Positions 1,690 through 9,248 of a stretch of DNA of 9,872 nucleotides are shown here, in pieces. The notes under the pieces were generated by a model, which did not search any database, was not told where the DNA came from, and saw only the letters and a list, made by a program, of their open reading frames with translations. Within the stretch, counting starts at the first letter, position 1, and every line of letters begins with the position of its first letter. Source of the stretch: a virus (lineage: Duplodnaviria > Heunggongvirae > Uroviricota > Caudoviricetes); IMG/VR virus record IMGVR_UViG_2663763428_000004; one strand, given 5' to 3'. The translations under genes were made by a program, and so were the position numbers.

Positions 1690-1905
1690 CCCCCTACTCC
1701 AAAAGAAAAGGTGGCTAACCAGCCACCTTCGACCCCTTTACCTAAAGGATGCGCTTTAGACTTTCAGCAAGATCCTGAATGGAACGCAGTGGCATGAAGG
1801 ATCTTGCTGAAAGTGCTAAAGCGCAACCCTAAATGTCCACAATAAATTAGTGTCTGGCGAAACGCCCGACAAGGATAAACCTGTTATCCCGCGCGTAAAG
1901 GTAGG
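1690..1905 (-). ncRNA. Candidate retron msr-msd non-coding RNA (structure-based guess; boundaries approximate)
   Basis: Non-coding stretch directly upstream of the effector and RT. Interrupted 26-bp hairpin at 1751-1824 (perfect 16-bp core 1761-1776 / 1798-1813, 21-nt loop). Further hairpins at 1708-1729, 1857-1867 and around 1872-1888. Possible minus-strand promoter: -35 TTGAAA (plus 1931-1936), -10 TATCCT (plus 1909-1914). No a1/a2 repeat pair or branching G identified. Confidence 0.35.
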
Positions 1906-2261
1906 GTTAGGATAGCAAAAGATGCGAGATTTTCAATAAGTAAGCGTACTGGCTGCCAGCAACCACCTAAACCATTGACATTTAAACAAAAATAAATCTA
2001 ACAATTGAAAGCAATACCTTATTGAATACAGCATTCTTATATCTCTCTTGATATCGCAACATCACAATTATCACCGTTAGTGCGGGCAGCCCCGCACGCC
2101 TGCCCGCTTCGCTTAACAGACTGGTTTTCATGCACCTCATTAATCGTCTCAGAAGCCAGCACACAAGGGTTTTCTCGTCAAAAATGGTGCATAAGACTCA
2201 TGCGTTTTCATGCGCCATAGACATGCACTCATGCGCTCTCATGTCAGCCAGGAAAAGGGGG

Positions 2262-3138: not shown

Positions 3139-3878
3139 ACTGCTTTCTCCTTCTCAGCAAGTTCCTGACGAACCTTAATTTTATGCATAGCTGCCGGAGA
3201 GAGTTGATTACTGAAATCCAGACGCGCCGCATAATCCGGGGCAACTCCCGCCAGTTTAAACACCGGGTCCTGCTCAGGCATCGCATCGTTAGCCAGAGCC
3301 GGTCTGGTGATATGTTTATGAATAAAGTCTTTCAGCACTGTGTCCGGGTCATTAACTGAATTCACCACACCCACAACGGCACTGGCTTCCCGGCCCATTG
3401 TGGATTTAAGCAGGCTCAGCGTCTGAATAAGCGCTTTTCCATGCGACTGCATAAAATCCTCCCAGATTTGTTTTGCGCGAATATCCACAAGAATGTTATG
3501 CGCGTGGATATACTTTCCGGCTAATTCTGCAGCTTTCTGCGGCAAAAGTGCATTTTCGCTTTCCTGAGCCGCCAGCAGCTCATCAAAATCCTCAAGCGTT
3601 TCTCGTCCCAGCGCAATTTCCGTGCGCAGTTTTTTCATTTCCTTTGAGACCACGCCCTGACTTTCACGAAACAGCGTGCGCCACTCCTCATTCAGTGTGT
3701 TCGTCGTGGCTTCCATTTCAGCGCGACGCTGGCGGATTGTCGCAATATTATCCGCTGCCGCTTTCTGCTGACGACGTGCTTCAAGCCATGCGTTTCTGGC
3801 TGTGTTCATGGTTTCCAGTGCCCGCTGCGTTACAGCCGGAAAAGTGGAAAGGTTGTTATTCACTGCGGTGTTGTTCAT
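3135..3878 (-). CDS. sid: Sid-like capsid size-determination (external scaffold) protein, Sid/Psu family
   Basis: 247 aa, first gene after the iteron region, AGGAG before ATG 3878, translationally coupled to psu. Predicted helical and charged-residue rich. WRTLFRESQGVVSKE and FMQSHGKALIQTL resemble Sid/Psu-family blocks. Assignment rests mainly on synteny with psu and ogr. Confidence 0.55.
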   Translation of the reverse strand: MNNTAVNNNLSTFPAVTQRALETMNTARNAWLEARRQQKAAADNIATIRQRRAEMEATTNTLNEEWRTLFRESQGVVSKEMKKLRTEIALGRETLEDFDELLAAQESENALLPQKAAELAGKYIHAHNILVDIRAKQIWEDFMQSHGKALIQTLSLLKSTMGREASAVVGVVNSVNDPDTVLKDFIHKHITRPALANDAMPEQDPVFKLAGVAPDYAARLDFSNQLSPAAMHKIKVRQELAEKEKAV

Positions 3879-3912
3879 GACTTCTCCTGTCGGGTTGGTT
3901 CGTTACGTCAAT

Positions 3913-4278: not shown

Positions 4279-6951
4279 TTAACCCGGCACCTCGCTGTTG
4301 AAGACATAGAGCCTGCGGGGATTCATCTCTGGCGGGCGAATGGTTGTCTGGAGTTTGCCATCAGTGGAGGGCAGCAGGTATCCACGATCTGCGCACAGAC
4401 GCGCCACCTTGCGCGGGTCAAATCCCCTGCAGATTTCTTTCCAGCCGGACGGCATGACATAGAACGTAGTGACAGCTTCCGTGCCCTGCGCGGTACTGCC
4501 TTTCTCCACCCTGCGCCAGCCCACCATATTGCCGGGGCGGTTGCGCTCGTCATACCAGTCTGCAAAGCGGCTGTACTGATTCGCGGTAAAGAAACTGCGA
4601 ACCTGCTCCAGTGCGGCGATATCTTCCTGATTGGCGGTGTGCCCGCGATCTTTCAGCCATGCGTTCAGGCAGACGCGGGTTGCCCGCAGTGCTTCACCCT
4701 CAGGCCAGCCGGTGATACCCAGACGGGTTGCCAGTTCACCTGCCATCGCCACCAGAGCAAAGCGGTTCACAGCCCGGCCCACCTGATTGCCTGCATCTTT
4801 CGGAGTCAGGGCGGCAGCATATTCCTTCATCAGCGATTTTGCCTGTGCCGTTAGTCCGTTAAGATCAGCGGTCAGTGCTTTCAGCCACTCCCGGAACGGC
4901 GAACCGTAGTAGCAGGACGTGGCCCATTCAAGATGCTCTGCCAGAGCCTTGCCGCTGTCGAAGCCGTGCAGCTCCTCAAAAACGCCAAACTTCCCGGAAT
5001 CGCTGGGGATCTGGATCATCCTGACTTCCATCCCGGCAAAAGTACGCTCACCGGCCTTTGCCGCATGTTCGGTCAGAGACAACTCGCCAGTTGAAAAGAA
5101 CAACAGGCGCCAATGCTTACGGGTACGCAGCTCACCGTCCGTACCGGCACGGCCCTTGCCCTGACCGTTTGCCAGCATGTAGGCGATATTGCCTGCCTCG
5201 CGTCCGTCAACTTCCCGGATCTCATCAAGCATCATGGCGGCATCGTTGCGGCGGCTGGCGCATCCCTCCAGCGCGTTGCCGGTGGCCCGCCATGTCTGCC
5301 AGTAGTCAGGCCCGCCGCAGACGGAGGTTGCCGCTTTCATGGTGGTGGTCTTACCGTCTGTCGATTCCCCTTTGAGGTGGTAGCCGCCGCCGTCCATACC
5401 AACCAGCCGTAACAGTGGTGCAGCAAAGGCCAGGCTGACAGCAAATGCCACGCGGGAGTTGCCGGTACAGTAGCGGGATACATGCTCCCGCCATTCCTCT
5501 GTTGTGCCCGACACGCGGAAATCACGCCCCTGCACGGAAGTGGTCTGGAGAATGACACCCTCTGCACCTTCACCGCTGACCTCATCCTGCAGGACGTAAA
5601 CCTGACCATGCCAGCCAGTACGACTGACGCAGGTCACGCGGCGTTCCGGTTTACACAGTGAGATATATTCCATCAGGCGTGCGCGTGCCTCACCGGTGGT
5701 GCTGATATAAGACAGCCCGTTAACCAGCAATACCCGGCGCAGTTCCTCACCACTGCCGCTCAGCATTTCCATCGGCATCGCCCAGCGGCGACACTCACCC
5801 CACGTATCTTCCCATTCCAGCAGTCGTCCGAAGTTACCGCCATCGGCATCGCAGGTGATTGCCGTCACGCGCAGCGGGCTGCATATTTTGACGTTCTGGA
5901 TCTCCGTCTCACCGTTGCGCTGTACCTGCTTTTCATACCAGAGATATTCCTGGGTAAGACGGAACCCGTGCGGCAGTTGCGTGCGGCCCTCCCCGCACAG
6001 CACCAGACCGTTACGAAAGGCTTCACGGGCGCGGGTAATACCGTGCTCCCGATGGAAGTCATTCCAGTCGGCCTTAATCTCTCCCGGTGGCAGCGTCATC
6101 CAGCCGCCAACAGCTTTTGCCGCCCGTTCAGCAAAGGCTCTGCCGGGATTCTCACCCCCGTCCTGAAAATCGTTATCACCGGCGATGATAATTTTTACCT
6201 CAGGCCAGCGTGCCCGCAGCGACTGCGCCACATTGGGCAGGTTGCCCGCAGATATGGCAGCCACTACGCATCCGGCAGTGAGCTGACTTACCGTCAGCGC
6301 CGTAGCGTAACCTTCGGTAATCACCACCTGTACCGGTGGTTCAGACGGTAACGGGCTGAGCGACACAAACGCGCCTTTCATCGTGCTGCCGGGCAGTATG
6401 CTTTTTTCACCCGTCGGGGCGATAAGCTGTGCACCAGTCACGGCTCCGGTGTTGGTCGTGAGTGGTAACAGCAGGGAACCGGCAGGAAAATCCTTACCGC
6501 TGATATGCTGCACGCTTCCGGTCAGAGAGGCCGGGTATCCGGCGAACCCTTTTCCTGTCAGATAGGCGCTTTCTCCCGTGTGGCTCTCTTTCATCAGCGC
6601 CGCCACGGTAAGACCCATGTCGCGTTTAGGGGCTTTTTTTCTGGCAGGCTTAACAGGCAGTTCCTGCACATCCGGCACATTAAGCACCTGCGCCACCTCC
6701 TGCGCAGCCTTTCTGACGCTGTAACCGGTTACGAGCTTAACCAGATCCAGACCGTCACCATTGCCACACTGGCTGCAGATCCACGTCCCGCGCCCGTCAA
6801 GGTCATCAAGGCGAAAACGATCCTTGCCCCCACATTTCGGGCAGGGACCGTGCCTGCCGTTTTCAGGTACATCAATACGCAGCATCTGGAGAATAACGGG
6901 CCATTTCCCCCGTGCGGCGGCTGAAATCTGCGTAACCGTCTGTATTGTCAT
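4279..6951 (-). CDS. Satellite primase-helicase, P4 alpha-like (N-terminal zinc ribbon, TOPRIM, C-terminal P-loop NTPase)
   Basis: 890 aa. CPKCGG..(x19)..CSQCG zinc ribbon (coded about 6766-6843); TOPRIM-like VVITEGYATA...IIIAGDND; Walker A GESTDGKTT. ATG 6951 with GGGGGA upstream; ATGA overlap with the upstream gene. Confidence 0.9.
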   Translation of the reverse strand: MTIQTVTQISAAARGKWPVILQMLRIDVPENGRHGPCPKCGGKDRFRLDDLDGRGTWICSQCGNGDGLDLVKLVTGYSVRKAAQEVAQVLNVPDVQELPVKPARKKAPKRDMGLTVAALMKESHTGESAYLTGKGFAGYPASLTGSVQHISGKDFPAGSLLLPLTTNTGAVTGAQLIAPTGEKSILPGSTMKGAFVSLSPLPSEPPVQVVITEGYATALTVSQLTAGCVVAAISAGNLPNVAQSLRARWPEVKIIIAGDNDFQDGGENPGRAFAERAAKAVGGWMTLPPGEIKADWNDFHREHGITRAREAFRNGLVLCGEGRTQLPHGFRLTQEYLWYEKQVQRNGETEIQNVKICSPLRVTAITCDADGGNFGRLLEWEDTWGECRRWAMPMEMLSGSGEELRRVLLVNGLSYISTTGEARARLMEYISLCKPERRVTCVSRTGWHGQVYVLQDEVSGEGAEGVILQTTSVQGRDFRVSGTTEEWREHVSRYCTGNSRVAFAVSLAFAAPLLRLVGMDGGGYHLKGESTDGKTTTMKAATSVCGGPDYWQTWRATGNALEGCASRRNDAAMMLDEIREVDGREAGNIAYMLANGQGKGRAGTDGELRTRKHWRLLFFSTGELSLTEHAAKAGERTFAGMEVRMIQIPSDSGKFGVFEELHGFDSGKALAEHLEWATSCYYGSPFREWLKALTADLNGLTAQAKSLMKEYAAALTPKDAGNQVGRAVNRFALVAMAGELATRLGITGWPEGEALRATRVCLNAWLKDRGHTANQEDIAALEQVRSFFTANQYSRFADWYDERNRPGNMVGWRRVEKGSTAQGTEAVTTFYVMPSGWKEICRGFDPRKVARLCADRGYLLPSTDGKLQTTIRPPEMNPRRLYVFNSEVPG

Positions 6952-7643: not shown

Positions 7644-8003
7644 TCAGAGAAACTTTGAATAGTGACCGTCGTCAGGCTCAGCAGAACGCCGTATGCTACG
7701 CTCCCGCCAGCGGATAAATAGCACAGACGGATGCAGTGTCAGCGGGCCGGAACCACTACCGCCAGCAGGAGCTGGTGCAGGCTTCAAGAGCGGTACATCA
7801 AACAGGCGCGTATACCGCTGTTCAAACCATGCCAGAGGGCAGGAAGAAAGCTGGTTGTCGCTGTCATGACGTATCAGCACTTCACAGCTGAATTCAGGAT
7901 TAACCAGCGCCACAGAGGGCGAGGCTTCTATTAATCGGATAATCGTGACCGTCCAGCCACGTTCATGCTGCCAGCGTTCGCCGGGGTGCGGATAATTACG
8001 CAT
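7644..8003 (-). CDS. Hypothetical protein (~119 aa)
   Basis: Track ORF 7644..8033 begins at a TTG; I prefer the ATG at 8003-8001, which is preceded by GGAGGTG. No motif recognised. Confidence 0.5.
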   Translation of the reverse strand: MRNYPHPGERWQHERGWTVTIIRLIEASPSVALVNPEFSCEVLIRHDSDNQLSSCPLAWFEQRYTRLFDVPLLKPAPAPAGGSGSGPLTLHPSVLFIRWRERSIRRSAEPDDGHYSKFL

Positions 8004-8172
8004 GTTCACCTCCGCAGGGAATGCGCCCGGCAAAGCTCAGTACATAGTCCGGGGCAAGTCTGCGCCGCGCTGACCGCTCGTTATCTGCGGTGATCCTTAA
8101 CATCACAGGACGGGCATTGCGTTGACTGCGGTTGATCGCCGCAAATAACCAGGTACACTTCTGTTTAGCCAT
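7996..8172 (-). CDS. Small basic hypothetical protein (58 aa), first gene of the leftward operon
   Basis: ATG at 8172-8170 preceded by GAGG; this is the 3' part of track ORF 7996..8730, whose upstream portion crosses the promoter and operator region and is not credible as coding. Confidence 0.35.
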   Translation of the reverse strand: MAKQKCTWLFAAINRSQRNARPVMLRITADNERSARRRLAPDYVLSFAGRIPCGGEHA

Positions 8173-8247
8173 CTTCGTTACCTCATTTAGCGGATTGGTC
8201 AGAAGCCCGGTTAGTGTTGCTGCACTGTCGGGCTTCGCACTCACAAG

Positions 8248-8340
8248 GTGAATCGCACCTTTAATTTTAAAGCTACCCTTAAGTGAATCGCACTTCAAGC
8301 TTTTTATTATCATTTTTTTTGCATATACTGAATCGCACCT
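8248..8340. promoter_or_regulatory. Three direct repeats (G/C)TGAATCGCAC(C/T)T in the divergent control region, with a candidate plus-strand promoter
   Basis: Repeats at 8248-8260, 8283-8295 and 8328-8340; -10-like TATACT at 8324-8329 abuts the third repeat; weak -35 TTTTTA at 8301-8306. Confidence 0.45.
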
Positions 8341-8359
8341 AACGCGAGGAGATCCAGTA

Positions 8360-8545
8360 ATGGCAACGAGTTCAACTAACAACAAGTCGCAGCAACTTAA
8401 TGCTCGTTTCCCACATGATGTAGTTGCAGAATTAGAAAGCAACCTTGAAGATGGAGAAACGAAAGCGCAATTCATTGTTACGGCTGTAAAAGGCGAGATT
8501 AAACGCCGACAGCGCAGGAAAAATAAGCCAGAGCAAGGTAGTTGA
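8360..8545 (+). CDS. Small ribbon-helix-helix (CopG/Arc-like) DNA-binding protein, candidate repressor
   Basis: 61 aa; GAGGAG 8 nt before the ATG; N-terminal ARFPHDVVAELESNL...AQFIVTAVKGEI fits the RHH strand-helix-helix pattern; basic C-terminal tail. No toxin partner downstream. Confidence 0.55.
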   Translation: MATSSTNNKSQQLNARFPHDVVAELESNLEDGETKAQFIVTAVKGEIKRRQRRKNKPEQGS

Positions 8546-8608
8546 ATAGAGAAGCCAACAGACGTTCTCTCTGTTTCCATGTTAATTTCAGTAAGCGACA
8601 ATATTTTT

Positions 8609-8642
8609 AAGCCCACAAATTCATTATGTCGGGCTTTTTTAT
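8609..8642 (+). terminator. Intrinsic terminator after the RHH gene
   Basis: Stem 8609-8617 / 8627-8636 with one bulge, 9-nt loop, then T6; sits between the convergent RHH and alpA genes. Confidence 0.5.
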
Positions 8643-8872
8643 TAGTGATTTTCATATCGCTCACCACGAGAGGCATATATTTGCTCTTGAATCCAGTGAT
8701 CCACTTCGCTTTCAACAAATGAAATTGCACGAGTTCCTATTTTCACCGGACGGGGAAATGTATTGTTTGCAAGCTGTTTGTAAAGCCATGCCTTGCTACG
8801 CTGAACGCGTCTTAAGACCTCTTTTGCTGAGATAAGAGTCTGATTATCTGAAAAGCTGTTTGCATATTCCAT
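8642..8872 (-). CDS. alpA: AlpA/Vis-family phage transcriptional regulator / excisionase-like protein
   Basis: LISAKEVLRRVQRSKAWLYKQLANNTFPRPVKIGTRAISFVESEVDHWI matches the AlpA helix-turn-helix pattern. Preferred start is ATG 8872 with GGAG upstream; the track start at 8917 is a GTG. Confidence 0.8.
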   Translation of the reverse strand: MEYANSFSDNQTLISAKEVLRRVQRSKAWLYKQLANNTFPRPVKIGTRAISFVESEVDHWIQEQIYASRGERYENH

Positions 8873-9248
8873 CTTGTTACTCCGTGTTCTACTTAAGTTC
8901 ACGGTGACTTTAAACACTGGGAAAAAGTGATTCTAGTGATAATGGAATCTATTAAGACAAATATTGATTCTATTGAAAAACAATAATCTCCACTGAAAAA
9001 AGAAGTAATATTCATATGAAAGAACACGGAGAGAAGGAAATGCACAAAAAAAACAAAATCAATAGAATTCATATGGATAGGATGGAAAATCAAAAAATCA
9101 TATGTCAAAAGGTATTATTGCATTTTAACGATTCATATTACCTAGGAATTAGCACAGTATTACACCATATTACATCGTATTACCCCCTATAGCCCGTTAG
9201 AGCCTCTTGTGGCCCTTCTATTGAGAGATAGCCAGAAAATTAATAAAT

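Follow-up and report, generated by a model that had tools for sequence, protein, structure and literature searches.

A putative ribbon-helix-helix repressor with three operators and a SymR-homologous antisense RNA as a candidate immunity cassette of a P4-like satellite prophage

The region between the alpA gene and the early operon of a P4-like satellite prophage of Escherichia coli probably encodes an immunity cassette, in which a small, autoregulated repressor of predicted ribbon-helix-helix (RHH) fold, acting on three operators, is combined with an antisense RNA homologous to SymR. This reading comes from a comparison of 81 related loci of Enterobacterales (17 from reference genomes, 56 from viral contigs and 8 retrieved by exact protein look-up), which give 63 distinct upstream sequences, the window counted in; by the window we mean the whole stretch of 9,872 nucleotides analysed here (viral record IMGVR_UViG_2663763428_000004). 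From these sequences we infer that the protein binds DNA, in which direction it regulates, where the promoters lie and what role the cassette has in lysogeny.

The window is a P4-like satellite prophage at tRNA-Leu. Its sequence is found with 100% identity in the chromosomes of many E. coli strains, and in E. coli M217, where the element adjoins tRNA-Leu, the RefSeq gene order is integrase, hypothetical protein, AlpA-type regulator, YlcI/YnfO protein, Icd-like protein, three small genes, TOPRIM-DUF927 primase, the gene in sid position, psu, ogr/Delta and a retron. The RefSeq annotation of this identical element thus contains the P4-like core set (int, HTH/AlpA, TOPRIM-DUF927 primase, psu, ogr/Delta, tRNA-Leu); the sid assignment follows from gene position only, the RefSeq label being "septation initiation protein". 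Pfam matches in the window were AlpA and DUF5375, and a phage collection gave no DNA match for the window. Elements of the P4 type can also replicate as plasmids. P4-like satellites have been reported in more than 30% of Enterobacterales genomes (PMC8628076). The genes and signals that frame the region are as follows.

7996 to 8172, minus strand: Icd-like gene (NCBIfam NF033153, 84 bits), counterpart of the P4 kil region
8346 to 8351, plus strand: Shine-Dalgarno sequence GAGGAG, 8 nt before the ATG at 8360
8360 to 8545, plus strand: open reading frame of a 61-aa YlcI/YnfO-family protein, predicted RHH, the proposed repressor
8609 to 8643, plus strand: intrinsic terminator of the RHH gene, hairpin AAGCCCAC...GTCGGGCTT followed by TTTTTATT, abutting the alpA stop codon
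8642 to 8872, minus strand: AlpA/Vis-type regulator (Pfam Phage_AlpA, E 1.1e-11), convergent with the RHH gene

The Icd-like gene, which is 54% identical to P4 8192-8329, heads a leftward early operon running to the primase gene (4279-6951), and the RHH gene stands on the opposite strand to this operon. The original prediction had placed a small gene with a strong ribosome-binding site antisense to the main operon, and both points stand: the 61-aa frame is on the plus strand, the operon on the minus strand, and the GGAG of the Shine-Dalgarno sequence is kept in related loci. A longer frame of 244 aa on the minus strand (7996-8730) was discarded as a gene, as it crosses the intergenic region and is antisense to the conserved RHH gene. 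On the minus strand the terminator hairpin is followed by an A-rich tract and has no U tract, so that leftward transcripts that start upstream of alpA could, once activated, continue into the RHH gene in antisense; such read-through could lower its expression.

Between the two divergent genes lie three repeats, the candidate operators O1 to O3, together with two predicted promoters.

8245 to 8261, no strand: operator O1, AAGGTGAATCGCACCTT (AAGGTG-AATCG-CACCTT, palindromic arms round the centre AATCG)
8281 to 8295, no strand: operator O2, AAGTGAATCGCACTT (AAGTG-AATCG-CACTT, palindromic arms)
8329 to 8340, no strand: operator O3, TGAATCGCACCT
8270 to 8298, minus strand: predicted leftward early promoter (-35 TTGAAG at 8298-8293, 17-nt spacer, -10 TAGCTT at 8275-8270; read by eye)
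8301 to 8329, plus strand: predicted promoter of the RHH gene (weak -35-like TTTTTA at 8301-8306, 17-nt T-rich spacer, -10 TATACT at 8324-8329)

An exact search found the 10-mer core TGAATCGCAC three times in the 9872-base window, at these sites and nowhere else; dinucleotide shuffles of the window contained 0.01 copies on average, and none of 200 reached three. With its two following bases, TGAATCGCAC(C/T)T occupies 8249-8260, 8284-8295 and 8329-8340 on the plus strand, with start-to-start distances of 35 and 45 bp. The three copies and their spacing had been predicted correctly, as had the contact of the third copy with TATACT, whose final T is its first base; the repeat itself begins one base downstream of the predicted start at 8248. 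O1 and O2 have palindromic arms, between which a C/T change is compensated, O3 lacks the left arm, and in several relatives (L015, L017, L018, L023, L025) the centre of O1 is inverted with its arms kept. The arms and this inversion indicate three quasi-symmetric operators rather than strict direct repeats, and an inverted centre between intact arms is more in keeping with a symmetric oligomer on DNA than with a loop in RNA.

The sites are set on the core elements of both predicted promoters, whose -35 elements stand back to back. Within the leftward promoter, O2 takes up the spacer and reaches into the -35 element, and O1 falls at about +3 to +19 of the transcript predicted to start there. In the RHH gene's promoter, O3 adjoins the -10 element and spans the predicted +1. 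The leftward promoter matches the consensus at only 4/6 and 3/6 positions, below the cut-off of the consensus scan, which for this reason did not list it. In the related loci read, TTGARG-N17-TAnnnT is found again at this position in both classes of the protein described below, and at the position of the rightward promoter class-B loci carry TTTACA-N16-CATAAT, a stronger version.

The three sites hold their positions across the 81 loci (63 distinct upstream sequences), with the 35 and 45 bp spacings retained in both class A and class B, and in related loci of 1.5-8 kb the motif is likewise confined to the intergenic region. Among 42 distinct class-A upstream regions, O2 and the -10 element plus O3 are at least 95% conserved, and the intervening sequence is not. 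The RHH gene itself is under strong purifying selection (dN/dS 0.02-0.06, with dS of about 0.9-2.8 between the same loci), and the cores of the sites are unchanged across loci despite saturated synonymous sites. A shorter O1-O2 spacing of 22-23 bp instead of 35 bp, about one helical turn less, was observed in L015, L017, L062, L063, L078 and L079, where O1 overlaps the leftward -10 element.

The letters of the sites follow those of the protein. The O2 core tracks the protein class in 61/61 sequences of the two main classes: QQLNARFPH at residues 11-19 goes with [GT]TGAAT[CT]G (class A, 44/44), and xQKTARxPL with GTGACT[TC][GC] (class B, 17/17), with GTGAATCGCAC as the core in the window and GTGACTTGCAC as the class-B core. 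In a Xenorhabdus locus whose protein has QFMTARVPH, O1 and O3 read GATACAC, and some class-B lineages have a degenerate O3 (CTGAACGCCACC). Residues Q12, A15 and R16 of the protein are invariant, as are the outer GTG and CAC of the sites; the centre of the sites varies jointly with residues 13, 14 and 17. All three sites switch together with residues 11-19, the predicted DNA-reading strand. A protein and DNA linked to it could covary because the cassette is inherited as a unit, and it is only the concerted change of three separate sites, for which co-inheritance alone is not a sufficient explanation, that argues for selection. A host factor is an unlikely reader of the sites, since both classes occur in E. 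coli. Furthermore, loci with identical operators have AlpA, Icd-like and primase proteins that are absent, undetectable or 27-56% identical to those of the window, and their replication modules differ (P4 alpha type, D5_N, DUF927), so that the small protein is the only neighbouring protein co-conserved with the sites. The siting on promoter cores, the invariance of the sites, their concerted covariation and this sole co-conserved protein all favour the autoregulated repressor and operator that the original prediction had proposed. Among 5426 complete E. coli genomes, 612 match the cassette or a part of it, and 203 of these 612 carry at least 80% of the region; it also occurs in Klebsiella, Salmonella, Citrobacter, Pectobacterium, Proteus, Xenorhabdus and others.

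The 61-aa protein is a member of NCBIfam NF041551, YlcI_YnfO_N (65.7 bits against a cut-off of 30, E 2.8e-18, positions 1-42 of the 42 of the model); RefSeq gives the identical protein the same YlcI/YnfO annotation, and it also matches phrog_949, a group with no assigned function. It is likely to have an RHH fold. In the AlphaFold monomer model (pLDDT 74) the N-terminus is extended and followed by helices at 19-30 and 35-55, and weak, sub-threshold Pfam matches were obtained among 29 members to CB_ParB_C (7/29, best E 0.011) and PSK_trans_fac (3/29, best E 0.0094). The RHH label given to the gene has moderate support from the extended N-terminus with its two helices and from these weak matches; the 61-aa protein passed no Pfam threshold, all matches to RHH families of the Arc/MetJ/CopG superfamily were below threshold, Foldseek gave no hits in the PDB and a PDB sequence profile search returned nothing relevant. 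The quasi-palindromic sites and the covariation of residues 11-19 suggest that the protein would act as a dimer or higher oligomer on symmetric operators. Phage and satellite records yielded a single weak protein match, and in the literature searched, which did not cover all journals, we found no functional study of YlcI/YnfO (DUF3950) or of the cassette. K-12 YnfO was rejected as a functional model (27% identity over 30 aa, location beside nohA/cos, no similar repeats). Variants of 103 aa with a 40-aa C-terminal extension are present in Yersinia enterocolitica and relatives (L061, L083; P0080/P0081), and in L061 and L083 the operators are more degenerate and the distance to the antisense RNA is longer. 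L023 and L024 encode at 4679-5041 (plus strand) a 120-aa small-terminase-like protein with a weak precomputed DUF3950 Pfam hit and a Terminase_2 hit; this suggests that a small DNA-binding module of the YlcI/YnfO type is also used in packaging proteins, and K-12 ynfO is likewise next to nohA.

Just left of O1 a two-hairpin element is conserved, and it points to a second component of the cassette.

8167 to 8240, possibly to about 8268, plus strand: cis-antisense RNA homologous to SymR, facing the start codon and ribosome-binding site of the Icd-like gene
8132 to 8159, plus strand: promoter-like TTGATC (8132-8137), 16 nt, TACACT (8154-8159), ending 7 nt before 8167

RNAalifold on an alignment of 25 sequences gave 22 pairs, 14 of them with compensatory changes, and 97.5% of the alignment cells were paired, a value matched by none of 500 shuffles (0/500). 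The asymmetry of the strands (78 G-U cells on the plus strand and 2 on the minus strand; 97.5% against 83.6% paired cells) indicates an RNA read on the plus strand and complementary to the Icd-like transcript at its ribosome-binding site and start codon. At the same spot Rfam symR (RF01809) matched four loci, the window at 24.6 bits and L006, L021 and L025 at 31.6-34.8 bits, the gathering score of 61 being reached in none of them. We also built a covariance model, R1, from the satellite sequences alone; it detects the annotated symR of K-12 with 41 bits and E 1.3e-7 (L088 3831-3924; annotated 3836-3912), and it finds nothing in P4. The R1 element is present in all 81 related loci and in two further elements with other small genes (L086 and L087, see below). 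SymR is transcribed from a promoter inside the coding sequence of its target and covers the target's ribosome-binding site and start codon (PMC1891008). The satellite RNA has this same geometry in addition to the homology: it is cis-antisense over the ribosome-binding site and start, with a promoter within the target coding sequence. The repressor and operator originally proposed are upheld, and control is not by protein alone: a SymR-homologous antisense RNA, unnoticed in the original prediction, accompanies them in every related locus. A second SymR-like copy lies on the far side of the RHH gene in L068 and L071 (3044-3133, plus strand). In K-12 (L088, 4576000-4583000) the chromosomal symE/symR pair is located between mcrBC and hsdSMR; the homology of its symR to the satellite RNA suggests that the symE/symR locus may descend from a satellite control cassette.

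The mechanism that we propose is the following. The 61-aa YlcI/YnfO-family RHH repressor would bind three quasi-symmetric sites of 13-17 bp with the core GTGAATCGCAC. At O1 and O2, which lie over the -35 element and spacer of the leftward promoter and over the first 20 bases transcribed from it, it would switch off the operon from the Icd-like gene to the primase gene, and at O3, over the -10 element and +1 of its own promoter, it would limit its own synthesis. The antisense RNA may add a second, post-transcriptional block to leaky translation of the first, probably toxic, leftward gene. Protein and RNA together would form a prophage-maintenance (immunity) cassette in the slot that in P4 is taken by PLE, seqA/isrK and the CI (C4) RNA.

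One might argue instead that the antisense RNA is the real immunity factor and that, like P4 CI, it blocks translation of the first gene and thereby causes premature termination in the operon, the protein being an accessory or transient regulator of the Cro-like or fine-tuning kind and not the one that maintains the prophage. The structure of the RNA is strongly supported, SymR-homologous RNA accompanies not only all 81 RHH loci but also elements with other protein cassettes, and in P4, too, immunity depends on an RNA, which prevents the first genes from being translated, with termination following. Yet operators placed over both core promoters and so strongly constrained are hard to explain for a minor regulator, a cis-antisense RNA leaves the covariation of operators and protein unexplained, and the two layers are compatible with each other; we consider it unlikely that the RNA acts as the main factor. 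A combined action of repressor and RNA remains our preferred reading, and it has also to be weighed against two proposals that dispense with the small protein as the reader of the sites.

According to one of these, the repeats are bound by AlpA/Vis, by the primase (as origin iterons), by the integrase or by a helper factor such as Cox, and the small gene is unrelated to them. AlpA does adjoin the region, and P4 has primase-binding repeats in ori and crr as well as arm-type integrase repeats; however, no further copies of the motif are found near the primase gene or att, in the window or in any of the loci, and origin iterons of the P4 ori/crr kind were rejected on this ground. The identity of the cores where AlpA, the Icd-like protein and the primase are unrelated or 27-56% identical and the primase families differ, their covariation with the N-terminal strand of the small protein, and the different repeats of L086 and L087 in spite of an identical Icd-like protein and the same gene order make such a binder highly improbable. 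The repeats could also work as RNA hairpins or as a terminator, for example with O1 ending the antisense RNA or stabilising the 5' end of the leftward mRNA. O1 folds as a 6-bp hairpin followed by UUUAAUUUU, the C/T change is compensated between the arms in both O1 and O2, and the main antisense hairpin of the window and of L004 has no U tract, which O1 could supply. This would not account for O3, which has no left arm, nor for O2, which lies within a promoter spacer; moreover, conservation does not extend to the U tract after O1 (L005, L006), the unpaired centre, as the supposed loop, is better conserved than any other part and varies jointly with the protein, and inversion of the O1 centre alters the loop sequence. 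We give very little credence to a purely RNA-level function of the three repeats, and O1 alone may have a dual role as DNA site and RNA hairpin.

The place of the cassette corresponds to that of the P4 immunity region. Between its kil region and vis (orf88), P4 encodes C4 (the CI RNA, 8420-8507) and isrK (the seqA leader, 8615-8692). Neither C4 (RF01695) nor isrK (RF01394) had an Rfam match in the window at E up to 1, or up to 10 locally; the positive control, P4, scored 74.9 bits for C4 and 60.8 bits for isrK. In scans that also took in 20 related loci, both RNAs were found in P4 and C4 alone in L068. What the original prediction says of P4 is thus accurate, the two RNAs being at the equivalent place and P4 having no homologue of the 61-aa protein. 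Strict mutual exclusion of the protein cassette and C4 had to be rejected: L068, of a PICI-type lineage, carries the C4 RNA (1883-1970, minus strand) alongside the RHH cassette, which is accordingly no strict replacement of RNA immunity. Other E. coli elements whose Icd-like protein (WP_001118612.1) is identical and whose early genes are in the same order have other small divergent genes in the slot. In L086 (2640-2848, NZ_CP128592.1) it encodes a 57-aa protein (…PPFQMRLTDDFRLQLENEM…) and there are two copies of GGTAATTACC; in L087 (2620-2854, NZ_CP049967.1) a protein of about 60 aa (annotated as 64 aa), which matches YlcI_YnfO_N at E 2.7e-4, goes with TGTAATG/CATTACA palindromes. Both slot proteins show an Arc-like sequence pattern, and profile comparison of A1 with them was not significant. 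Varied slot genes, each with repeats of its own, are the pattern expected of alternative immunity alleles.

Several known systems resemble parts of this arrangement. P4 immunity shares with it the slot between vis/alpA and the Icd-like (kil-region) gene at the head of the leftward primase operon, and an RNA that acts at the 5' end of the first gene; P4, however, has no protein repressor, and its CI RNA derives from sense transcription and has seqA and seqC as targets in trans; in the satellite there is instead a protein gene in divergent orientation, with three operators, and the RNA is a cis-acting antisense one. The immI region of P22 (Mnt, Arc, sar) likewise has small autoregulated RHH repressors with operators over divergent or adjacent promoters and, in the same region, an antisense RNA on the ribosome-binding site of the downstream gene. 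The satellite differs from it in having one protein instead of two, with no sequence-family relationship detected, in the control of an early/replication operon instead of an antirepressor gene, and in an RNA that is a SymR homologue. Two-layer control of a replication operon, by a promoter repressor, in CopG a small RHH protein, and an antisense RNA at the translation start, is known from CopG and RNAII of pMV158 and from CopB and CopA of R1; copG, unlike the divergent satellite gene with its three spaced sites, is co-transcribed with repB and has a single pseudo-symmetric element, and we found no sequence similarity of the 61-aa protein to CopG-type systems. The SaPI repressor Stl is similar in that its gene is divergent to the excision/replication operon, near int, keeps the island quiescent and has allelic variants of different specificities; Stl proteins are, in contrast, larger, of the helix-turn-helix type and inactivated by helper-phage proteins, and we propose no inducer for the satellite. 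SymE/SymR of K-12 has the homologous antisense RNA in the same geometry (PMC1891008), with SymE and not an Icd-like protein as the target, and the LexA control of that locus is not evident in the satellite.

To our knowledge, the control of lysogeny in P4-like satellites is understood only for P4 itself, via the CI RNA. For Gram-negative PICIs, AlpA as master activator and RNA repressors have been reported, and the papers searched describe no protein repressor (PMC11773190, PMC10111431). We put forward, tentatively, the broader idea that a portable, allelic cassette of a YlcI/YnfO repressor-operator set and a SymR-type RNA is common to many satellites of Enterobacterales (P4-like satellites, PICIs and capsid-forming PICIs), where it would replace or supplement CI and set heteroimmunity groups. 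If so, the cassette would be the missing repressor of Gram-negative satellites, the YlcI/YnfO (DUF3950) family would acquire a testable function, and the chromosomal symER locus would be a descendant of such a cassette. One protein and one 11-bp core would then offer a handle to control or induce satellites with defence systems, such as the retron of the window, and the classes would provide a natural set of orthogonal repressor-operator pairs.

Some minor observations concern other parts of the element. Upstream of alpA there are 21-bp direct repeats (AAAAAGTGATTCTAGTGATAA at 8922-8942 and AAATATTGATTCTATTGAAAA at 8959-8979) and, up to 9095, more AT-rich repeats and inverted repeats, which may be the control region of the alpA (PLL-like) promoter. 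The int-alpA RNA (RF02996) has no match in the part of the element within the window; it scores above the gathering score in L005 (6057-6125), L078 (4620-4685) and L083 (5844-5914, minus strand). The retron occupies the variable region of the satellite (window 1695-1902, 695-1681 and 136-708, all on the minus strand), with an effector and a reverse transcriptase both labelled "retron St85 family" in RefSeq. Its msr (RF00170) matches at 42 bits and is adjacent to an STnc400-like structured match of 55 bits, both below their gathering scores, and the latter is probably the msd.
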